A DNA stretch of 26,713 bases from Nitrososphaeraceae archaeon (GCA_035297365.1 DATGZA010000065.1:1-26713); one strand, 5' to 3'. Counted from the first letter of the stretch, positions 2,933 to 21,445 are shown. A program made the numbers and translations. The notes: a model not told the origin generated them from the sequence alone.

Positions 2933-4039
2933 TTAGCCACCCATTACAGGTGGTTGTCGTAATAGCCATAGCTTCTTCTGATCATAAAATGACATTTGTT
3001 GTTCATCTGACTGTTCAAAATTGAGGTCATAGTGTGCATACAGAGCTAAAATTACAGGGGATCGAGACAAACCTGATTCTCCTGGAGTAGCATAGAGTAT
3101 AGAGTCTCCGTCGTCTCCACAAATAAACTGGCCTAAATTTGACTTCCAGAATATCCTAGGACTAATAACTATATCATATAATGGATGTTTTTTGTATTTA
3201 GAACCTGTTATTGTAGTAGGTGAACAATTATTAGTTTCTCTTAACGCAGTAAATTTTATAATTTCCGACGTAATTAGATAACTCTTTGAAATATTTATTC
3301 GCACAGGGTTGTTAAAAGCTCTAAAAAGTATTCTTAAATTGCAGATATTACAACTTTTTTTTGTTTTTATTGACACAAGATTACCATATCTTTCAGCAAT
3401 TATCAATCCATTATTTTCGGTCTCAAAATTATCAACGGTTGTAGACGATAAACATAAATCATTTTTTTCACAAGAATCAGAATAGTCTTTTTGTAATGAG
3501 ATCCTAGCTTTGCATAAACTTTTTAGAAATTTTTTGAAAATTGTTATTTCTATATTTATTAGAAATTTGTATTGTTTTTTCCCCTTAAAAGATTTTAACC
3601 CAATTTGAGTGGCAGTTAAAAAAATTTTGATATTTTTCTTGGCCTGATTATTTTTGATGTCATTCAACTGAGGATAGAAAAGTACGCAATTTCCAGTATC
3701 CCTTGTCATATACTCTGCATTCGTACCATATCCAATTTTGAAAGCGCCGTTTTCCTTATCTTCCTGTTCTATCTTCCAATTTATTTTAGAGTCCGCTGGC
3801 AACTTAAAAATATGACTTTGTTGATGTCTGCATAGTGCTTTTATGATAACATGACTTTTTACATCCAATTTAATTGAAATAGCATCTCTGATTCCAAAAC
3901 TGATTTCATTAATTGGAAAGGCAATATCAATATCACAATAACGATGTATTTCATAATCAACAGAGTAAAGATAATTGGATTCACTAACATGATCATCCTC
4001 ATAATTACCAGCACCATAATGTGATATATTATTAAACAC
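2933..4039 (-). CDS. Hypothetical protein, 368 aa
   Basis: Long open frame in very AT-rich DNA, GTG start. No family motif recognised. Confidence 0.7.
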   Translation of the reverse strand: MFNNISHYGAGNYEDDHVSESNYLYSVDYEIHRYCDIDIAFPINEISFGIRDAISIKLDVKSHVIIKALCRHQQSHIFKLPADSKINWKIEQEDKENGAFKIGYGTNAEYMTRDTGNCVLFYPQLNDIKNNQAKKNIKIFLTATQIGLKSFKGKKQYKFLINIEITIFKKFLKSLCKARISLQKDYSDSCEKNDLCLSSTTVDNFETENNGLIIAERYGNLVSIKTKKSCNICNLRILFRAFNNPVRINISKSYLITSEIIKFTALRETNNCSPTTITGSKYKKHPLYDIVISPRIFWKSNLGQFICGDDGDSILYATPGESGLSRSPVILALYAHYDLNFEQSDEQQMSFYDQKKLWLLRQPPVMGG

Positions 4040-4310: not shown

Positions 4311-5708
4311 CTATTCTATAGCACATGTTACGACTTTCTCTAGTAACCAAATTTTCTCAAAAGAGATAATATATGTAAATATAGATTCTTCTTTATTAGT
4401 ATAAACTGCAAAATATTTCTCTGTATCTTGTGTAGAATCTTTTTTTGTATCCAATACCATAGCTTTTTCTAAATCTACTAACATTATCATGGCGTCTGTT
4501 TTCAAAGGTTTTTCAAAGTATCTCAAATTTATATTTGGATTTTTAAATATTAACCTCTGTAAATTATTGTCTTTAACAAATGCAGATACATGCAGCAAAA
4601 TTCTAATGAATAGTCCTTCATTCGCTCTTTTATTAACAAGATATAACAGATCTTTTATTTCTGTCGCTTCCAACCACTTAGGTGCACAAATCAGGATACT
4701 TATTTCGCTTTTTGAATAATTTATCAATTCAAAAAGAAGAGTGTGAATTCTTTCTTTATGTTCTATATTTTCTATAAATGGCTTATTTTCTCCTAAAAAT
4801 TCCTTAAAATTTCCTCTAGAAGAAATTACCTGTCTATTGGATTCATCTGCATTAAACGTATCATCAAGGTCTTTATTTAGTAAATGACTGAGTTTGTAGT
4901 ACCAAATCAAAGCTGCGCTTAGAAACAAATATGCAAATGCATATATCAAATTCCATAGCCACTCAGTAACCAAAATAAGATCATCACTAATAGTTGATGT
5001 ATATGTATATCCAAAGTCTGCAATTGTTACCAATGTCATTGAAACACAGAATAACATCCAATGATAAATGAAAGGATCTTTTTTTGGTAACTTGTAAATA
5101 ATAAGAAGAGCAGAAATAAGCAAGATTGTATCCAATACATAGTACAAGATATTGATAGCAATTTCTAAAGATTCAGAATTGAAATCAATTCCATTGATTA
5201 TCATATGAACGGTTGTTACTACAGGAATTAAAGAAACCACAAAAGATACAAAAATAATAGTGCTACGAGAAATCGATTTATTCTTATTAACAACATTAAA
5301 CGATTTGTAAATATGATAAATGAGGAAACCGTATCCTATAAAATAAAACAATTCTGCAATAGACGGGTAAGGAACAGGAATATTTAGTACCGATTGATAG
5401 AACAAGTATGTAGCTTCGCCCAAAAACCAAAAAACTATGCCGATTAAAACAGCTTTGAACTTTCTGATCTCCATTTTTTTAATATGAGTAGTTATCAAAA
5501 GCAGCGATATCGCCGTACATATACCTAAAAATATTAATGTGACCATACTATTGTATTTATTAGTTTTTTCTATATCAATCAAATAGATTATTAAATAGAT
5601 AAAAAATGTGCTTACGGCAGCAGTTAGTAAAAAACCAGAGAACAGATATTTTAATTCATATTTTACTCTGAATAGGACATCTGTTTTTGAACTTTCGAGA
5701 TTATACAA
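4311..5708 (-). CDS. Multi-pass membrane sensor-like protein with a C-terminal PLD/TrmB-effector-like domain and no kinase domain
   Basis: About 8 hydrophobic segments including W.LGE...PYPSIAELFY. The C-terminal domain (SKSEISILI...IRILL...IMLVD...YTN...FEKIW) parallels the middle domain of the kinase. TTG start. Confidence 0.8.
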   Translation of the reverse strand: MYNLESSKTDVLFRVKYELKYLFSGFLLTAAVSTFFIYLIIYLIDIEKTNKYNSMVTLIFLGICTAISLLLITTHIKKMEIRKFKAVLIGIVFWFLGEATYLFYQSVLNIPVPYPSIAELFYFIGYGFLIYHIYKSFNVVNKNKSISRSTIIFVSFVVSLIPVVTTVHMIINGIDFNSESLEIAINILYYVLDTILLISALLIIYKLPKKDPFIYHWMLFCVSMTLVTIADFGYTYTSTISDDLILVTEWLWNLIYAFAYLFLSAALIWYYKLSHLLNKDLDDTFNADESNRQVISSRGNFKEFLGENKPFIENIEHKERIHTLLFELINYSKSEISILICAPKWLEATEIKDLLYLVNKRANEGLFIRILLHVSAFVKDNNLQRLIFKNPNINLRYFEKPLKTDAMIMLVDLEKAMVLDTKKDSTQDTEKYFAVYTNKEESIFTYIISFEKIWLLEKVVTCAIE

Positions 5709-5926
5709 CTATTTGTTATATATTACTGATCCAATGATAATTATTTATTCTTTTTTCCATTCTTTTTTCCAGTATGATTTTCTCGTGTTTCTAATGTACT
5801 ATTATTTTTTTCAACCAAAAATATTGAATTAAAAAAATTTCAAATAACATATTCGATGTTTACCTAGAAGACATGTTTATTATTATCAGACTTTTTGTAA
5901 TTTGTATCAACAATAATATTTTACTC

Positions 5927-5950
5927 AAATTTTTCGGCGCCGAAAAATTT
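5927..5950. promoter_or_regulatory. Perfect 24-bp palindrome AAATTTTTCGGCGCCGAAAAATTT; candidate ParB-binding (parS-like) site
   Basis: Self-complementary over all 24 bp with no loop. It has an 8-bp pure-GC core in AT-rich intergenic DNA and lies about 106 bp past the parB stop. The palindrome is certain; the function is inferred. Confidence 0.6.
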
Positions 5951-6056
5951 TTGTTTGAAAAAATTACACATCCTGAAGTAAAATGATAGAAAAAATATAC
6001 AAAAAATGAAAATGAAAATAATGATAACGAAAATAATGGAAATGGAAAAAAATTAT

Positions 6057-6920
6057 CTAGATTTTCTTTTTCTCTTTTAGCAAGATATCTATCTGACTAT
6101 GAAGCATGTTTTTGTGCTGCATCAATATCTCATACACGGTCCAGTTATCCTCAACATCTTCAATTATGGAGGCCAGTTTATTCATTGCTACTCTCACTGC
6201 AATGATAGCCTTGTCAAAAGATTTCTGCGTCCTTGCATCAATATCAACGATCTTGGTTTGAAAATCAAAGATTTCTTCAGGATGCTCGGAGTTTTTCATC
6301 TCATCTTTTAACATACGTACCTGTCTTGAAGAAAGCTTTCTCTTTTTAATCAATTCAGCCAATTTAGATTGAATTTCTTTCTCTTTTATTGGAAGCAATT
6401 CCTCTGCAAGACTTGGTTTTATCTCGTTGTTTGAGATTGATTCGATTAGAGTTTCGGGAAAAGTTAACATCCTTATGCGTTTATCAATATAACTTGCACT
6501 TTTACCCAATTTTGTAGCAAGCTCAGATATTCCACCCCAACCGTAGGTAGATACGTAATCTTTGAATGCACGTGCTTCATCTATTGGATTTAGATTTTTA
6601 GAGTGAATATTTTCCATCAGGGATACTTCAAAAGCATCTTTGTCATCAAGTTCTACAACATGACAGAGAATTTTACGCCATCCAAGCATTTTACAAGCAT
6701 TGTATCTTCTTGTACCAGCAACAATTTCGTATTTTGAATCATCAGTCATCCTTACAATTATAGGCTGAAGAAGACCTTTTTCCTTTATAGAATAACATAA
6801 TTCATGCATATCCTCATGCAGATTATTTCTGTAATAGTACTTGAATGGTTTAATCTTTGAGATGTCTACATTCTCTAGGACTCCAATTACACTGTTTGAA
6901 GTGGAATGGATTTTTTGCAT
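6057..6920 (-). CDS. parB: ParB/RepB/Spo0J family partition protein
   Basis: SIKEKGLLQPIIVR, YEIVAGTRRY.A (GxRR CTP-binding motif), EN...LNPIDEA, and HTH SELATKLGKSASYIDKRIRML. Own TATA-like TTATATA about 22-28 nt upstream. Confidence 0.93.
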   Translation of the reverse strand: MQKIHSTSNSVIGVLENVDISKIKPFKYYYRNNLHEDMHELCYSIKEKGLLQPIIVRMTDDSKYEIVAGTRRYNACKMLGWRKILCHVVELDDKDAFEVSLMENIHSKNLNPIDEARAFKDYVSTYGWGGISELATKLGKSASYIDKRIRMLTFPETLIESISNNEIKPSLAEELLPIKEKEIQSKLAELIKKRKLSSRQVRMLKDEMKNSEHPEEIFDFQTKIVDIDARTQKSFDKAIIAVRVAMNKLASIIEDVEDNWTVYEILMQHKNMLHSQIDILLKEKKKI

Positions 6921-6996
6921 GTGAAATATTCAGTTACAGACTATATAACCTTGTTGGACCTACGTAAGAACTATAAAAAGAATTATTTTTTATTTT

Positions 6997-7863
6997 CTAG
7001 TCATTTGTTTCTAATTTTTCTATAAGTGCGTAAATCTTGCTTGTAAATGGATGTTCAGGATATAGCAAACTGGTAAGAAATTCTTTTTGACTAAACTGGA
7101 TATCACAATAACATGGTATTTCTGAAATAATATCCAGATTTATGTCGCGGGATAATTTTTGCAATGTACTTTGTTGAGTTTGTTGAGAAGAAAAAGAAGA
7201 CCCATCTTTTCCTTTATTATTTAATGTTATCAATGGATGATGCTGCTCTGGAGGAATGGTACAGTAACCGGAACCTCTATTTAGTAAAAGATAACACATT
7301 GTTCCAAATTTAGTAAATGAGCCATAAATCTCACTGGCCATTCTTTTGGTACCGTCAACATCAAGGTCACCCATTTTCAATGTCAAAAGAACGACGTCGG
7401 AAACAGCAAGAGCATTGATTGACCAATATCTCACTCCTGGACTTGTGTCGATGATGATAAAATCAGCATTTTTTTTCATTATCAGTTCTTCTCTTAATAG
7501 TATAAAGTTTCTAAGGAATTGCATTTGAGAACCTTGTTTAGATATGTTTCCATCCAGTTTGTAAATTTCTTCCTTATTGGAGTTTGCCATACTTACAAAT
7601 AATTTACCTTTTATATCAGATGAAATTGTTTTAGTAATATCAATACAAATGTCATCAACTGAGGCATTACCGAAAAGAAAATCATTTATCCATTTTTTTG
7701 GATCTTTTAAGTCAAAATATGAACCCAAACTTGGAGCATAAACATCGAGATCTAAAAGAAATACCCTATATCCTTTCTTTGCCAATAGTACACTGAGATT
7801 GGTTGCTATTGTTGTCTTGCCTGTTCCACCTTTGTAAGAATGAAAAGCAATGCATCTAGTCAT
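6997..7863 (-). CDS. MinD/ParA family ATPase
   Basis: Deviant Walker A KGGTGKTT, LLDLD, and Walker B IIIDTSPG. Directly upstream of parB. Confidence 0.92.
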   Translation of the reverse strand: MTRCIAFHSYKGGTGKTTIATNLSVLLAKKGYRVFLLDLDVYAPSLGSYFDLKDPKKWINDFLFGNASVDDICIDITKTISSDIKGKLFVSMANSNKEEIYKLDGNISKQGSQMQFLRNFILLREELIMKKNADFIIIDTSPGVRYWSINALAVSDVVLLTLKMGDLDVDGTKRMASEIYGSFTKFGTMCYLLLNRGSGYCTIPPEQHHPLITLNNKGKDGSSFSSQQTQQSTLQKLSRDINLDIISEIPCYCDIQFSQKEFLTSLLYPEHPFTSKIYALIEKLETND

Positions 7864-7936
7864 TTCCTTACAGAAAAAGGTGCCATAAACCCACTAATAA
7901 ATGTGTGATAGATATATCGGGATTATACTTCATTTT

Positions 7937-8305
7937 TCATACTAGTACTTTTTCGATATGTTTCAAGAGCTCATCTATTGAGATAGGCTTTTGTATAAAG
8001 CACTTATGATCCATATTTGGGTATTCCTCTAATAATCCTTCATAATATGCCTTAAATGAAGTTATGAAACAGACTCTCAGATTGGTATCTATTTTTTTTA
8101 ATTCCTGAACTAGTTCAAATCCGTTCATTCCTTGCATTCTGATGTCTATAAGAGATAAATCGTAAATTCCAGGTTTAAAATTATTTAAAGCAATTTCAGG
8201 ATCATTAAAGGTATCAACGCTATAACCACTGTTTTCTAATCCTAACTTGAAGGATAAAGTAGTACCTTGATCATCGTCAACAATGAGGATCTTCTTTTTT
8301 TCCAT
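7937..8305 (-). CDS. Single-domain response regulator (receiver only)
   Basis: ILIVDDD acidic pocket, phospho-acceptor in LIDIRM.GMNG, FITS and KP. 122 aa with no output domain. Confidence 0.95.
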   Translation of the reverse strand: MEKKKILIVDDDQGTTLSFKLGLENSGYSVDTFNDPEIALNNFKPGIYDLSLIDIRMQGMNGFELVQELKKIDTNLRVCFITSFKAYYEGLLEEYPNMDHKCFIQKPISIDELLKHIEKVLV

Positions 8306-8404
8306 AATGAAAACTCGTTTACAAAATTTAATAATGATTATATATAAAAATATTTACCACAAAAAATATAGAATTGTAACTATGAAGTTTAAAACGAATT
8401 GGAA

Positions 8405-8426
8405 ACTGACTGACTGACTGACTGAC
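8405..8426. repeat. (ACTG)5.5 tetranucleotide simple sequence repeat
   Basis: actgactgactgactgactgac, intergenic between the kinase and the response regulator. Confidence 0.9.
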
Positions 8427-8483
8427 ATTATGGAAAAAGGAAACCGGAAATTGCAGGAAACGTAGAAAGATGATTAAAGAAAG

Positions 8484-9953
8484 CTATTTTTCTGTTTTTA
8501 TAGGGATAGTAAAACTAAATGTCGCACCTTTGTCTTGATTATTCTCTGCCCATATCTTTCCGCCATGTTTTTCTATTATATTTTTGCAAATATATAGTCC
8601 TAGTCCTGTTCCTGATTTTGAACCCGTTACAAACTTTGTAAATAGCTTATCTTTTATCTTTGATGGAATACCAGGACCGTTATCTGTGATCTTTACAAGC
8701 ACATCGTTATTTTGTCTCTGTACCGATACAATTACTTGGCCTTCTTCTAAAATCTTTATGGCATTATTGATAATATTTAAAAGAACTTGGTTTACACGTA
8801 ATTTGTCCGCAACCAGTCTAACTGACTTTTCTTTACTCTTTAAAACTAAACTAATATTTTTACCTTTGGTTTGATTTTCCCAGTCACTTAATAGATCTCT
8901 TAAAGATTCCATTAAATCAAATTCTTCAAGATTAAGAGTTAAAAGCTGACCATCGATACGAGCCACATCTAAAAGATTATCCGTAAGAAACTGAAGTTTT
9001 TTAGCATTGCTGACAATTATCCTAAGTAAGTCCTCCTTCTTATCAGGATCAAGGTTCTTGTTAGAAAGCATAACTTCGGCAAGACCTAAAATAGGCTGAA
9101 TTGGATTTCGTATCTCGTGTGCTGCTTCATTAATAAATTGTCTTTGTGTCTGGCTTGTCTCTTTTAATTGCTGGTAGAGGTCATCTGCTTTTTTATAGAT
9201 ATCAGCCTGTTTCCACAAATTCTCGAATATAGACACATAATATAATACTGTTGACTTGCTATTTGAATACGTGGATAATCCAATCGCATCAATAGAATCT
9301 TCGGCTGAATCTTTTTCTAGTTCAACTGCAAGAGAGAAACTTCTATCAATTATTAAAATAGTGATTTTGAGATGCAATGGTTCTGGTAAATACTTTATAT
9401 CTATTGCATAATCATTTTTCAGATTATCAACGGTTGTTTGTATTTTTTCATCGAAAGGAGTTAGAATTCTAATATTAACATTTTTTGATGGATCCTCTTT
9501 TATCTTTTTTATAATGGAAAATCCGTCTGCTTGATTTATTCGCCTGTAAAAGGCATTTGCAGAAGAAAATAGTAACAGAACTTCTTTTTCTGCGGATCGA
9601 ACCAGTTTAATAGCCGTTGCTAGTGCCTCTTGAGGATTCTTGATTACTTGGATATAATGTTCTTTTGATTCAATATCTATTTCTCTTATTTCATCATAGG
9701 AAGGTACAACTTTGTTCCAAAAAGGATCTGAAATAATTTCTGTATTTCCTGTAAAACTTGTAATATTTTTTCCATAAAAATGGTCAAGTCTTTTGAACAT
9801 GGTGACACATTGATTTGTATCAAAAAAATACTTAGATCCAGAAATAGATTCTTGAATAATTTCGTTAGGGTCCCTATTTATTAGAGATTTGCCACACAGG
9901 GAACATTTGAATTCAGTTTTGTTATTTGAAGTATTTATATGATTACTCATCAT
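8484..9953 (-). CDS. Soluble sensor histidine kinase: TRASH/YHS-like + PLD/TrmB-like + HisKA + HATPase_c
   Basis: H-box FINEAAHEIRNP, N-box LLNIINNAIK, G1 DNGPGI, F-box LFTKF, G2 GTGLGL. No transmembrane segment. N-terminal CSLCG...FFDTNQC. Confidence 0.95.
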   Translation of the reverse strand: MMSNHINTSNNKTEFKCSLCGKSLINRDPNEIIQESISGSKYFFDTNQCVTMFKRLDHFYGKNITSFTGNTEIISDPFWNKVVPSYDEIREIDIESKEHYIQVIKNPQEALATAIKLVRSAEKEVLLLFSSANAFYRRINQADGFSIIKKIKEDPSKNVNIRILTPFDEKIQTTVDNLKNDYAIDIKYLPEPLHLKITILIIDRSFSLAVELEKDSAEDSIDAIGLSTYSNSKSTVLYYVSIFENLWKQADIYKKADDLYQQLKETSQTQRQFINEAAHEIRNPIQPILGLAEVMLSNKNLDPDKKEDLLRIIVSNAKKLQFLTDNLLDVARIDGQLLTLNLEEFDLMESLRDLLSDWENQTKGKNISLVLKSKEKSVRLVADKLRVNQVLLNIINNAIKILEEGQVIVSVQRQNNDVLVKITDNGPGIPSKIKDKLFTKFVTGSKSGTGLGLYICKNIIEKHGGKIWAENNQDKGATFSFTIPIKTEK

Positions 9954-10033
9954 TTTCCACGAGGTACAATATTAAATATATATAATTTCTATCTTTTTTA
10001 AACTATTTGAATTATAAAGTAAATTTGATATTG

Positions 10034-10219
10034 CTAATGAGAAGAGGTTACCAGATCCATGCAGAATTCATTGCCATAAATTCCTGAAAACCTTTCAAAG
10101 AGAATTTTACAATTTTTTTTATCAAAAAGAAACTCGTATGTAGTATCGTCTATGGATCTGAGGGTTTTTATAAGGGTATCAGTATTTTCTATTGTACAAC
10201 CACATAAACTACATTTCAA
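10034..10219 (-). CDS. Stand-alone TRASH/YHS-like domain protein (second free copy)
   Basis: CSLCG-x25-D-x3-C-x3-FER-x4-YG. Lies immediately upstream of the kinase. TTG start. Confidence 0.75.
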   Translation of the reverse strand: MKCSLCGCTIENTDTLIKTLRSIDDTTYEFLFDKKNCKILFERFSGIYGNEFCMDLVTSSH

Positions 10220-18379: not shown

Positions 18380-19600
18380 ATGCATGAAAGCTATTATATT
18401 TGTATGAATTTATCTAAATCCATTATCATTCTTTTTTCTTTAGCATTCATTTTTATAGTTTATACCGGTATCAAATTAGTTAATCCAAATATATCATCTC
18501 ACTCTCAAGAAGAAAAGGTACAAAGAATTATTGGAGGTCACACGCCTGGATATAGCACTTCAACAACAAATGGGGAACTTATTGATCCAATTTCTCAAAT
18601 GATACCAATCGAAGATGCAGTGATAGATCCTGATAAATACTTGAGAGATTTTAATTATGGAAGAGTATCAGTCTCAGATAATGGCACGACAATAAGAGAT
18701 TTTACAATTGTAGCTTCTGATCAAGACATAAAGCAAATTTCACCAGGTGTATTTTATAATGTTTGGACATTTAATGGAACAGTACCTGGACCAACAATCC
18801 GTGCTGTTGAAGGAGATATTGTGAGGATCAATTTCATAAACAATGGATCGAAATTTCATACAATGCATTTTCATGGGATTCATAAGGCAGAAATGGATGG
18901 AGTATTTGAAGGGGTAGCTCCGGGAGGAAAATTTACTTATGAATTTATAGCTGAGCCGTTCGGAGTTTTTCCATATCACTGTCATATCCAACCACTGGAA
19001 GAACACATAGTTCATGGTTTGTATGGAGTTTACATAGTAGATCCCAAAATTCCTAGACCTGAAGCTGATGAGATGGTCATGGTAATGAATGGTTATGATA
19101 CTGATTTTGATACTGAAAATAACTTCTATACTGTAAATGGCATTCCGTATTATTACATGCATCATCCTATTCAGATTAAGAAAAATGATCTAGTTAGAAT
19201 TTATCTAGTAAATATGCTGGAATTTGACCCCATTAATAATTTCCATTTACATGCAAATCTTTATAATGTATACAAGACCGGAACAAAAACAACTCCAGAC
19301 GAATATACAGATATGATAACCATGAGTCAGGGAGAAAGAAGTATCTTGGAATTCAAATACATGTATCCCGGAAAATATATGTTTCATGCTCACAAGACGG
19401 AATTTGCTGAGAAGGGATGGATGGGTTTATTTCTCGTAAAAGAATCAGTTAATGAAAAAAATAATACAAGCTACACAAATACTGCCGATACTCTGTATGA
19501 CGAAAATGACGAGAACTTGAGTATTGGAACCTATAATAAGATAACGCAAAAAGAATCAGCAGCAAAGATTCTGAAAAATTTAACCAATGGAGGTAACTAA
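18380..19600 (+). CDS. Two-domain multicopper oxidase, membrane-anchored
   Basis: FNGTVPGPTIR; four HxH motifs (HTMHFH, YHCH, FHLH, FHAH); type-1 Cys only in domain 1; N-terminal TM helix. The start may be ATG 18404. Confidence 0.93.
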   Translation: MHESYYICMNLSKSIIILFSLAFIFIVYTGIKLVNPNISSHSQEEKVQRIIGGHTPGYSTSTTNGELIDPISQMIPIEDAVIDPDKYLRDFNYGRVSVSDNGTTIRDFTIVASDQDIKQISPGVFYNVWTFNGTVPGPTIRAVEGDIVRINFINNGSKFHTMHFHGIHKAEMDGVFEGVAPGGKFTYEFIAEPFGVFPYHCHIQPLEEHIVHGLYGVYIVDPKIPRPEADEMVMVMNGYDTDFDTENNFYTVNGIPYYYMHHPIQIKKNDLVRIYLVNMLEFDPINNFHLHANLYNVYKTGTKTTPDEYTDMITMSQGERSILEFKYMYPGKYMFHAHKTEFAEKGWMGLFLVKESVNEKNNTSYTNTADTLYDENDENLSIGTYNKITQKESAAKILKNLTNGGN

Positions 19601-19605
19601 AAAGA

Positions 19606-20916
19606 ATGAAAGACATAGAGAACAAACAAGAAAAAAAAGAAAGTAAAAACAATATAGAATTCTCTAAAAAAAAGATATTTCTCTATGGTATAATTCCTTT
19701 TATCATACTAGCAGCTCTAATTGCTTTTATCTTAAGTCCAAATAGTCAAGTCTTTCTGAATGCAGGAATAGCACTACCAAATCTTACAATAGAAAAAATA
19801 GAATTTCAACAAGATTTTATAATTGCACATGTCAGAAATACAGGACAGTTCGATACTGTTATTTCGCAGGCCGATATAAATGATAGAATTCATCCTGCGG
19901 GTGTAGAACCATCTAAACACCTTTTAAGATTTGAATCAGCAAAAATAACCATTCCATTTTCTTGGAATGTAGGCGAACCCTATGAGATAGGAATTACAAC
20001 AAGTGATGGTACAAGATTTAGCAAAATCATTGACGCCGCTGCTCCGACTCCAAATCCAAATTATGAACAATTCTCGATATTTGCCATCATAGGTACATAC
20101 GTCGGAATCATACCAATACTGATAGGTTTATTGTGGTATCCCTTTATAAAAAAGTTAAATCAGAATAAGTATAATTTCTTTCTAAGTCTTACTGTAGGAT
20201 TACTAGTCTTTCTTGGAATTGATGCCTTGTTAGAAAGTAATGAGATTGTAGTCTCAAATGTTTCTAAAATCTTTAATGGACAAATGCTTATCATAATAGG
20301 ATGTATTATCACTTTTCTGGGACTAATCTACATCTCAAATAGATTTACACAAAGAACTCAAAAGAGTAAATCGTTAATTGAAGATAAGAATACAGACTAC
20401 AACGAATCTGTGTCATCATTTTCATCCATGTCCACCAGGCAAGAACAAAAAGACATCATCAAACCAATTACATTGTCTTTGATGATAGCCATAAGCATAG
20501 GATTGCATAACTTTGGAGAAGGATTGGCTATTGGTTCTGCAATTTTGATCGGCGAGGTTGCACTGAGTACTTTTCTTATAGTAGGTTTTACCATTCATAA
20601 CACAACAGAGGGTTTAGCAATAGTTGCACCATTGACTAAAAGCGGAAAGATAACGATACGAAAATTAATAATGCTTGGAGTAATAGCAGGTGGACCAACA
20701 ATAATTGGAGCTTGGATTGGAGGCTTCCTTTATCATCCCATTGCTTCCGTGATCTTCTTGGCCATAGGAGCCGGTGCAATCTTTCAGGTAGCATATCAAG
20801 TATATTCATGGTTTTCATCCTATCTAGGAAATAAAAATACTTTGACAAATGGATATATTATCAGCGGATTTATTGTAGGGATAATGATTATGTATCTAAC
20901 AGGATTATTTATATAA
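19606..20916 (+). CDS. ZIP family divalent metal transporter with an N-terminal extracellular domain
   Basis: IGLHNFGEGLAIG and IHNTTEGLAI metal motifs. Starts 5 nt after the oxidase stop. Confidence 0.93.
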   Translation: MKDIENKQEKKESKNNIEFSKKKIFLYGIIPFIILAALIAFILSPNSQVFLNAGIALPNLTIEKIEFQQDFIIAHVRNTGQFDTVISQADINDRIHPAGVEPSKHLLRFESAKITIPFSWNVGEPYEIGITTSDGTRFSKIIDAAAPTPNPNYEQFSIFAIIGTYVGIIPILIGLLWYPFIKKLNQNKYNFFLSLTVGLLVFLGIDALLESNEIVVSNVSKIFNGQMLIIIGCIITFLGLIYISNRFTQRTQKSKSLIEDKNTDYNESVSSFSSMSTRQEQKDIIKPITLSLMIAISIGLHNFGEGLAIGSAILIGEVALSTFLIVGFTIHNTTEGLAIVAPLTKSGKITIRKLIMLGVIAGGPTIIGAWIGGFLYHPIASVIFLAIGAGAIFQVAYQVYSWFSSYLGNKNTLTNGYIISGFIVGIMIMYLTGLFI

Positions 20917-20947
20917 AAAAAAAGGAGATGAAAGAGGTAATCCGAAA

Positions 20948-21445
20948 TTGAATATAATGAATACAAAAGGTCTATCGAGTAGCAGCAAAAGTATCAAAGA
21001 AAGTACTAGATTGACTTCCATACGTAATGCTAATTCCTCCAAGAAATATACAAAAGATAGAACTCCAAGGATGGAGGATTACCTTGAAGTTATTTATGAA
21101 TTAGTCCAAAGCAAAGGATATGCAACAACCGTAGACATATCTCAGTATCTGAATGTAAGTTCTCCAAGTGTCACAAAAATGGTACAAAGATTGGATGAAG
21201 CAGAGATGCTTATTTATGAAAAATATAGAGGAATAAGATTGACTGAACATGGGATTTCTATCGCTATTAGTATTAGAAATAGACACGGGCTTTTATCAGA
21301 ATTTTTCAGATTAATAGGTGTTGATGAAAATACTGCAAATGAAGATGCAGAAGGTCTCGAACACCATTTACATCCAGAAAGTATAAAGAAATTAGAAAAA
21401 TTGGTAAATATTATGAAAAACAATCCAGATATCTTAGATATTTGA
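20948..21445 (+). CDS. mntR: DtxR-family metal-dependent regulator, MntR-like (no FeoA/SH3 domain)
   Basis: MEDYLEVIYEL, HTH LNVSSPSVTKMV, RH..L..F and DAEGLEHH. The true start may be downstream of 20948. Confidence 0.9.
   Translation: MNIMNTKGLSSSSKSIKESTRLTSIRNANSSKKYTKDRTPRMEDYLEVIYELVQSKGYATTVDISQYLNVSSPSVTKMVQRLDEAEMLIYEKYRGIRLTEHGISIAISIRNRHGLLSEFFRLIGVDENTANEDAEGLEHHLHPESIKKLEKLVNIMKNNPDILDI

Follow-up and report, generated by a model that had tools for sequence, protein, structure and literature searches.

What a histidine kinase and a receiver-only response regulator control when they are encoded beside a ParA-fold ATPase and a ParB protein is the question raised by a locus in an archaeon of the family Nitrososphaeraceae. 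The window analysed is a stretch of 26,713 nucleotides (GCA_035297365.1 DATGZA010000065.1:1-26713), which is the whole of a 26.7-kb contig (G000:C65) from an archaeal genome of 2.5 Mb, about 30% of it GC. All genes of the locus lie on the minus strand, in the order Cys microprotein, histidine kinase, receiver, ATPase, ParB, palindrome and membrane protein. This gene order is not due to chance, because related genomes have kept it. The two-component genes are probably tied to the locus in function, and the palindrome is, with high confidence, a candidate cognate site of the ParB protein. Taken as a whole, the locus may be one two-component-controlled, KorB-like chromosomal ParB regulator module and not a segregation machine, a reading to which an even chance is given here.

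A sequence-only reading of this DNA had proposed a ParAB system under phosphorelay control, with co-oriented genes and a palindrome in the order given above, and this layout agrees with the coordinates and with the Pfam and NCBIfam matches. The gene for a cytoplasmic histidine kinase of 489 aa (positions 8484–9953; HisKA 3.2e-14, HATPase_c 4.4e-29) is followed by that for a receiver of 122 aa (7937–8305), in which Response_reg (7.5e-21) is the sole domain, so that the regulator does lack an output domain, as had been claimed. Next come a MinD/ParA-fold P-loop ATPase of 288 aa (6997–7863; AAA_31 8.8e-23, with a KGGTGKT motif) and a ParB of 287 aa (6057–6920; ParB_N, the CTPase-fold domain PF02195, 1.7e-23, and HTH_ParB, PF17762, 9.3e-18). 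The spacers flanking the ATPase gene, earlier put at 70–80 bp, measure 73 and 76 bp, the latter on the parB side. The spacer from the kinase stop to the receiver start is 178 bp long; within it, at 8405–8424, five CAGT units stand in tandem on the minus strand. Overlooked at that stage were the nature of the palindrome as a genome-wide, ParB-linked site and two further conserved members of the block, a 368-aa protein (2933–4039) and a second Cys microprotein (2124–2324).

The same reading made its proposal depend on linkage of two-component genes to these ParA and ParB families in other genomes, and conserved linkage was found. Presence and linkage were tallied in 121 genomes of Nitrososphaeraceae, including three unpublished ones (G035, G077 and G099) that lack the ParB clade and the palindrome and from which no loci were taken. 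Eleven loci fetched from the window's genus contain the block (microprotein)–kinase–receiver–ATPase–ParB, with ATPase identities of 62–98%. A species-level scan, with one genome per species, gave 79 ParB loci, 25 of which encode a ParB at least 70% identical to that of the window. Among these 25, 17 carry the kinase–receiver–ATPase–ParB block, three are cut by a contig end and five are stand-alone second copies; the block is thus present in 17 of the 22 same-genus loci with sufficient upstream DNA. The ATPase–ParB pair is found in 17 species-level genomes of this one archaeal genus, and the contigs that carry it reach 349 kb and resemble the host in composition.

Two gene pairs recur across genera, receiver with ParB and sensor protein with ATPase, each in at least six genera (counted by locus, related genomes not being independent). 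Outside the genus, a receiver gene stands beside ParB for 10 of the 11 best-scoring ParBs (L026, L042–L049 and L051) and for none of the ten lower-scoring ones; in the species-level scan, 11 of the 54 more distant loci have one no more than 1.6 kb from ParB. The out-of-genus arrangement can be divergent, upstream co-directional or downstream, and the receiver-linked ParBs form a single clade of 22 rows with a support of 93/95. As for the second pair, the gene immediately upstream of the ATPase encodes a full kinase of matching architecture in five loci (L072, L073, L075, L081 and L043) and a protein with the sensor domain alone in two (L077 and L078). Farther off, such a kinase is encoded about 1 kb upstream in L023, L065 and L071, and a sensor-domain-only protein, convergently, about 1.7 kb away in L067. 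A Cys microprotein adjoins the ATPase in at least six loci (L024, L025, L069, L070, L074 and L080). Kinase, sensor-domain protein and Cys microprotein are all absent beside the ATPase in 6–8 of 26 loci. Other genes can be interposed: a ferritin-like gene (7136–7726) lies between kinase and ATPase in L065, and an ATP-grasp (RimK-like) gene (8507–9619) between kinase and receiver in L081. In one genome of another genus (G022), all four genes are together in the order receiver<>ParB–kinase–ATPase, and its ParB and receiver are sisters of those of the window's genus in the trees. The earlier pairing of ATPase and ParB holds in the window's genus (17 loci) and in G022 only; the two genes adjoin in 0 of 54 other ParB loci.

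It is very improbable that these genes are neighbours without a common function. An A/T-rich, TATA-like stretch ahead of each gene (judged by eye) and the unlinked paralogs elsewhere in the genome would suit that view; however, the linkage survives rearrangements across genera, and the background chance of a receiver gene is only about 2–3% per 4-kb window, with about 16 receiver genes in 2.5 Mb.

The ParB protein scores 130.7 bits against TIGR00180, above the cut-off of 58.45, which places it in the ParB family. A PDB search returned Noc (1.2e-27), Spo0J (2.9e-27) and KorB (2.7e-8) as solved relatives; the alignment with Noc and Spo0J extends over residues 17–208 and includes the central helix–turn–helix (HTH). 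Among 32 homologs, G69 and R72 of the ParB_N box GxxRxxA are invariant and R71 is conserved in at least 90% (GxRR), while E103 and N104 are also invariant. The C-terminus is helical and family-specific, with no Pfam match to the canonical C-terminal domain of ParB. An LG[KR]GL-type ParA-binding peptide, which a recent survey takes as a marker, is absent from the first 30 residues in all 32 aligned homologs, which share another short N-terminus, M-[QS]-[KR]...G-[IL]-[IL]-E. The idea of a ParA–ParB system as first worded finds no support here, the ParB being devoid of the canonical ParA-binding N-terminal motif. A search for longer ParB relatives, as a ParB–receiver fusion would be, gave one without a receiver domain, which is weak evidence.

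ParB homologs occur in 101 of the 121 genomes and fall into two groups. The near-universal 'core' paralog is about 36% identical to the window ParB, whose own clade (best E ≤ 1e-70) is present in about 40 genomes. In this genome, the core paralog (L041, G000:C14:241597-242478) follows, co-directionally, three metal-ABC-transporter-like genes (binding protein, ATPase and permease, judged by eye), and no palindrome of the kind described below is found nearby.

The perfect 18-bp palindrome TTTTTCGGCGCCGAAAAA (5930–5947) lies 110 bp past the parB stop and 222 bp ahead of the membrane-protein start. It is an inverted repeat with T5 and A5 flanking runs and with no loop between the arms. Its exact sequence has 14 copies in this genome compared with about 2e-5 expected from base composition, an approximately 10^5-fold over-representation; with up to two mismatches there are 21 copies, all 21 of them intergenic in a genome that is about 70% coding according to a crude call. 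A palindrome shortly after parB is also found in orthologous loci. In 31 of 70 loci, a T-run/GC-core/A-run palindrome occurs between −40 and +300 relative to the parB stop, and the same scan of control windows gave 3 of 75 upstream of parB and 0 of 48 at a distance of 2 kb. The sole gene common to the 31 loci is parB. The exact 14-mer occurs in 32 of the 121 genomes and its reversed control in one; outside the genus, it was found in 16 of 28 genomes with the ParB clade versus 2 of 79 without it, the clade threshold of E ≤ 1e-70 having been set with the data already seen.

The core of the palindrome differs between ParB lineages (CGGCGCCG, CGACGTCG, CGGTACCG, GCGGTACCGC and GCCGCGCGGC). Of two ParB paralogs in one Nitrosocosmicus genome, L144 is accompanied by a GGCGCC core and L145 by a GACGTC core, at 7 bp past the stop codon in both cases. 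Extra copies match the variant at the parB of their own genome (four in G080 and three in G022), and the control genome G050, which is without the ParB clade, has 0 extra copies. Since the palindrome lies beside parB, is repeated intergenically, co-occurs with the ParB clade and varies in its core by lineage, it is most likely a cognate ParB site, parS- or operator-like, that co-evolves with the protein; judged from these sequence patterns, the assignment carries high confidence.

Other origins of the repeat were also considered. A mobile repeat or miniature inverted-repeat transposable element was rejected because conservation around the copies ends at about 22 bp. A GGCGCC restriction site was set aside: TCGGCGCCGA occurs in this genome only as this palindrome, and all 14 copies have complete T/A arms. 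Among stand-alone ParB copies of the genus with sequence available past the stop, a palindrome follows at +46 in L095 and is present as a variant in L100, in a record common with L022; none was found after the stop in L099.

Another account makes the palindrome a bidirectional terminator, an RNA hairpin or the operator of a different regulator, with parB merely one of its neighbours, and is rather improbable. A perfect inverted repeat with T and A runs, situated mostly 3' of parB, would be expected of a terminator; several other genes, too, have a copy at their 3' end, for instance 15 bp past a thioredoxin gene, and the symmetric core changes preserve pairing. However, one exact 18-mer at 14 unrelated places is not expected of generic terminators, and the arms have no intervening loop. 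The core, moreover, switches with the ParB lineage and even between the two paralogs of a single genome, parB is the only gene that the 31 loci have in common, and the motif is nearly confined to genomes with the ParB clade.

The genes next to the sites in this genome are mostly accessory. GMC oxidoreductases are found at four sites; other enzymes include astacin, trypsin-like and M14 peptidases, GH5 and a non-specific endonuclease. Redox and copper genes are represented by tyrosinase, cupredoxin, a Rieske protein and two thioredoxins, and signalling genes by two cyclase–receiver proteins and one receiver; a paralog of the membrane protein also lies by a site. Tyrosinase, M14 peptidase, HEAT and MAP3K_TRAF_bd with TPR-S occur by sites here and by ParB in other genera. 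In one region of this genome (L036, G000:C48:6455-20373), three palindrome copies flank an island of TIR-SIR2, STAND NTPase with beta-propeller, CHAT, MAP3K_TRAF_bd/TPR-S, HEAT and M14 genes. A receiver-less ParB of the same clade, with a GGCGCC palindrome directly past its stop, is located in L057 (G070:C53) and L060 (G107:C1) inside a contractile-injection or tail-like cluster of one genus, with an extracellular contractile injection system (eCIS) core, gp25, baseplate J and PAAR-like genes.

Dispersed operators of the KorB type would be expected in many copies near promoters of regulated genes; the 14–21 copies here are intergenic and stand at variable distances from genes. They are spread over many contigs in this genome; in G069, sites lie on five contigs and span 0.9 Mb on one of them, and in G044, ten sites are clustered within 64 kb around parB. 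This pattern fits better with a dispersed regulatory or loading site than with an origin-proximal centromere cluster, and is proof of neither. The sequence-only reading had linked the locus to DNA segregation, the cell cycle or transcription; the dispersed intergenic sites favour regulation over segregation.

A ParABS-type partition of the chromosome or of an integrated element, with the ATPase as ParA and the two-component pair timing segregation, is to be weighed against this pattern, and it appears unlikely. The ATPase and parB genes adjoin and are co-oriented, with a gap of 76 bp and an order kept in the genus; as is classical for parS, a site stands immediately next to parB, the G044 sites surround parB, and the nearest solved relatives of the ParB are Noc and Spo0J. 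Several findings are at odds with partition. The ATPase family is present in 110 of the 121 genomes, mostly in 1–4 copies, versus about 40 for the ParB clade, and the two genes are neighbours only in the window's genus and in G022. The ATPase is under every ParA and MinD cut-off, and the ParB has no LG[KR]GL-type motif. The G069 sites are scattered as described, no mobile-element genes were seen in the window, along which GC is even, and a published survey deems chromosomal ParABS generally absent from archaea.

The ATPase has Pfam matches to AAA_31, CbiA and ParA. It remains below every specific NCBIfam cut-off, with 64.2 bits against 180 for NF041546 (ParA_partition), 50.5 against 348 for TIGR03453 and 55.9 against 201.75 for the archaeal MinD family TIGR01969 (minD_arch). 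Its best PDB sequence matches are archaeal MinD proteins, over residues 1–72 only, and a Foldseek search with the AlphaFold model gave about equal matches to archaeal MinD, Soj, FlhG and FleN (E 6e-12 to 1e-9). The ATPase is a distinct Cys-rich subfamily that is not assignable to ParA or MinD; because the specific cut-offs are not reached and the fold matches are about equal, 'ParA' is only a fold label for it. Of the proposed output of the kinase through ATPase and ParB, the conserved two-component linkage is supported and a ParA identity of the ATPase is not.

Among 37 ATPase homologs, the deviant Walker A motif (KGGxxK[ST], here KGGTGKT) is invariant, as are C201, C251 and C253, and C4 is conserved in at least 90%; the cysteine motifs are GYC and PCYCDIQF. 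The model has a predicted local distance difference test (pLDDT) value of 79.5, which falls below 50 at 198–206 and 254–260, around conserved cysteines. These features hint at a metal or cluster site in the predicted protein. A distant relative, P0002 (524 aa, 34% identical), keeps PCYCD and P.HPF; its C-terminal extension of about 240 aa has no Pfam match and contains, by eye, a nuclease-like D...E.K stretch. P0002 was the one longer relative given by a search for such proteins, as a receiver-fused ATPase would be, and it has no receiver domain, again weak evidence.

Across genomes, the ATPase tracks the sensor proteins and not ParB. Orthology of the kinase-adjacent ATPases with that of the window cannot be stated, because the deep nodes of the ATPase tree are unresolved. 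A further possibility, tentative at best, is that the ATPase serves the sensor side only, for example as a metal or cluster partner of the Cys domains, and that its adjacency to parB is a by-product of joined gene pairs. In many genera the ATPase has a kinase, a sensor-domain protein or a Cys microprotein as its neighbour and no ParB, and it has four conserved cysteines, where the model is poor, as would be expected with the cofactor missing. The metal-handling, ATPase-type HypB is among its fold matches, and RNA contigs, discussed below, bridge receiver and ATPase, with none bridging ATPase and parB among the matches listed. This possibility overlaps the regulator module and does not exclude it. 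The four genes are also together in two arrangements, that of the window's genus and that of G022; metal binding is putative, and the Cys positions are unlike those of CooC, NifH and Nbp35.

The sensor side itself is made up of related proteins. The kinase has, in order, a Cys zinc-ribbon-like domain, a domain with the TrmB C-terminal/PLD fold, HisKA with the H-box AHEIRNPI, and HATPase_c; a search for hydrophobic segments found none. C17, C20 and C49 are invariant among 14 homologs. The first 60 residues of the kinase and both microproteins share a C-x2-C...C domain, which we take to resemble a degenerate TRASH/YHS-type zinc ribbon, Pfam having made no call. Microprotein 1 (10034–10219, 61 aa), an open reading frame with this pattern, is 37.5% identical to kinase residues 16–61 and is a paralog of the kinase N-terminus; Pfam and NCBIfam scans gave no match. 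It lies upstream of the kinase in same-genus loci, with 28–95% identity, an intact Cys pattern and no internal stops. Microprotein 2 (2124–2324, 66 aa), the last member of the conserved block, is 55.6% identical to the kinase N-terminus and has a homolog at the equivalent relative position in L007, L008 and L009.

According to the predicted structure (residues 1–262, pLDDT 78), kinase residues from about 100 to 260 fold as the C-terminal domain of TrmB/TrmBL2 and as PLD/Nuc proteins; the best Foldseek matches of the model are TrmBL2, TrmB and PLD/Nuc, with E from 1e-8 to 1e-6. A homologous domain (E 4e-8 to 5e-8) forms the soluble C-terminal part of the membrane protein (4311–5708, 465 aa), which has six hydrophobic segments within residues 21–269 and no Pfam match. 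This gene follows parB in some same-genus loci only. The conserved 368-aa protein (2933–4039), to which Pfam and NCBIfam assign no match, follows parB and palindrome within the genus (L007–L009, L013 and L020, plus 11 loci of the species-level scan); an Atlas search with it gave a best score of 0.88, under the lead threshold.

The two-component pair has the features of the HisKA type, namely a kinase with HisKA, H-box and HATPase_c, a receiver with the Asp pocket, T and K, and conserved adjoining genes. The phospho-acceptor pocket of the receiver is intact: among 27 homologs, D11, D54 and K106 are conserved in at least 90% and T82 is invariant. In the receiver tree, whose resolution is poor owing to the shortness of these proteins, the receivers of the block and that of G022 form a supported clade.

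Transcription of the locus is seen in soil metatranscriptomes. RNA-library contigs from four soil runs of three studies, 95–100% alike, cover kinase, receiver, ATPase and parB, so that parB is transcribed in all four. Contigs bridge receiver and ATPase in two of the four runs, both of one study, and these two genes may share a transcript. In all four runs, contigs end at 8302–8310, which is the receiver start codon, and adapter letters come next in two; this is a weak hint at a leaderless transcript starting there. The RNA contigs fit the separate TATA boxes proposed earlier for most genes, with receiver and ATPase as the possible exception. Contigs over parB have higher depth figures per run than those over ATPase and receiver, although such figures cannot rank genes. 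The palindrome, microprotein 1 and most of the membrane-protein gene have no cover, which does not indicate absence of transcription.

From these parts, a mechanism can be proposed. The kinase would sense a ligand or a metal or redox state through its Cys zinc-ribbon-like and TrmB/PLD-fold domains, probably working with the Cys-rich ATPase and the stand-alone Cys microproteins, and would phosphorylate the receiver-only regulator. The receiver would act on ParB, because it has no output domain and ParB is its tightest neighbour, retained though rearranged; it might act on the ATPase too, given the possible shared transcript. ParB would bind the palindrome beside its own gene and the other 13–20 intergenic copies, and from these sites could modulate nearby accessory genes, such as those for secreted enzymes, redox and copper proteins, signalling and defence-like islands. 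It would do so as a KorB-like, CTP-dependent loader and clamp, and not as a centromere protein of segregation. The mechanism is plausible because it has two precedents, the KorB clamp and archaeal receiver-only regulators, which are thought to act through DNA-binding partners from separate genes.

A more detailed version is speculative and probably wrong in at least some of its parts. The phosphorylated receiver would be a signal-dependent clamp-locking or loading partner, and ParB would slide from its sites into the accessory islands, tail-like clusters included, which would be silenced or activated by it. Upstream, the Cys-domain kinase and the Cys microproteins would form a metal/redox sensor complex together with the MinD-fold ATPase, which would carry a metal or cluster.

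A number of observations weigh against the regulator module. ParB can work without a receiver, because a nearby receiver is missing in about half of its clade, and within the genus, stand-alone ParB copies that are 73–82% identical (L095, L099, L100, L126 and L143) are without the block. Outside the genus, the ParB-adjacent receivers fall into a polytomy with five paralogs of this genome, which does not resolve their orthology. One of them, in L046 (G043:C1, 5523–5903), has lost the acidic pocket, with E in place of the phospho-acceptor Asp, and is likely, by its sequence, a pseudo-receiver. The motif 'ENIQR' of other ParB lineages has S in place of R in the window's genus; since we take this motif to be part of the CTP pocket, the clamp chemistry may differ there. 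Among the RNA contigs listed, none bridges ATPase and parB or kinase and receiver. As to the site, an RNA hairpin or terminator could also account for a perfect palindrome with T and A runs, and symmetric core changes fit a hairpin as well. The sites lie 15 to 955 bp from the nearest open reading frame and thus follow no simple operator geometry, because there is no fixed distance to start codons. The ATPase paralogs of this genome (C61 and C94) and its kinase paralog (C58, 61% identical) adjoin neither a receiver nor a ParB gene. DNA at the C58 and C61 contig ends, near the paralog genes, encodes no receiver either, and there is therefore no second module in this genome.

Elsewhere in the window, at a distance of 8 kb from the module, a row of genes (18380–21445) encodes a multicopper oxidase, a metal transporter of the ZIP family and a metal-dependent repressor of the DtxR type; the palindrome is absent at this row.

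The locus is of interest for archaeal signalling at large. According to a census by Galperin et al. 2018 (PMC5847659), bare receivers make up about three quarters of the thaumarchaeal response regulators; receiver-only regulators of archaea are thought there to work by protein–protein contacts, sometimes beside HTH genes, and most bare receivers have no conserved neighbourhood, so that their function cannot be inferred. The locus gives one thaumarchaeal bare receiver a conserved and testable set of partners, and, in soil ammonia-oxidising archaea, it points to a new route by which archaeal two-component signals may act on DNA. It also shows that archaeal chromosomes encode a conserved ParB, in some cases beside a ParA-fold ATPase, whose DNA site can be recognised and co-varies with it. 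If ParB is the output, the clamp-regulator idea of KorB, Noc and BisD would be extended to archaea and to phosphorylation control; the site variants are a natural specificity code, open to in vitro tests that need no cultures of these slow organisms. Should the detailed, speculative version given above be true, this would be the first chromosomal ParB regulon controlled by a two-component system and the first case of a defined output route for the stand-alone receivers that abound in Thaumarchaeota.

In the literature search, which covered papers without their supplements, no paper was found on a receiver–ParB pairing, the palindrome site or the ATPase subfamily. A 2025 survey reports archaeal parB near parA in 4.8% of cases, judged likely contamination, and a paper on sponge symbionts notes Spo0J/ParB enrichment only.

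Among known systems, KorB–IncC–KorA of plasmid RK2 was compared first. KorB (PMC11790492), a CTPase clamp of the ParB family, acts as a global repressor at long range: it silences promoters as far as 1.5 kb from its operators, and a small, clamp-locking partner turns it into a repressor. The window ParB shares with KorB the ParB fold with HTH, a ParA-type ATPase gene nearby and a short palindromic operator with T/A flanks around a GC core, as judged from one OB oligonucleotide in that source. The number of dispersed sites is also similar, about a dozen (12 on RK2, according to the same source) versus 14–21 here. The small partner needed by KorB to alter its clamp behaviour would have its counterpart in the phosphorylatable receiver, in place of KorA or TrbA. 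Unlike KorB, which is plasmid-borne, the system of the window is chromosomal, archaeal and known from sequence alone; its ATPase is no recognisable ParA or IncC, and its ParB is closer to Noc and Spo0J.

Bacterial ParABS and Noc systems (Spo0J/Soj and Noc) have in common with the locus the ParB_N and HTH_ParB domains, a TIGR00180 score above the cut-off, their place as best solved relatives and a palindrome beside parB. They differ in that the window ParB has neither the ParA-binding N-terminal motif nor a Pfam match to the canonical C-terminal domain, its site is unrelated in sequence and scattered among accessory genes, linkage of the ATPase to ParB is in most cases missing, and the host belongs to the archaea, where chromosomal ParABS is deemed generally absent by the survey. 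The FleN/FlhG–FleQ and TadZ/CpaE systems likewise tie a MinD-fold ATPase to a receiver-type protein, and FleN and FlhG are among the best fold matches; here, however, there is no flagellar or pilus context, the subfamily has four conserved Cys residues and, unlike in TadZ/CpaE, receiver and ATPase are separate genes. The archaeal census of receiver-only regulators describes, in its accessible part, stand-alone receivers with an intact pocket beside, and often divergent from, genes for HTH proteins, as in this locus. The partner in that part of the census is of the ArsR/HTH_20 type, and a ParB partner, a site or an ATPase is not mentioned in it. The parts of the locus are of known kinds; their coupling and their chromosomal multi-site arrangement are new.

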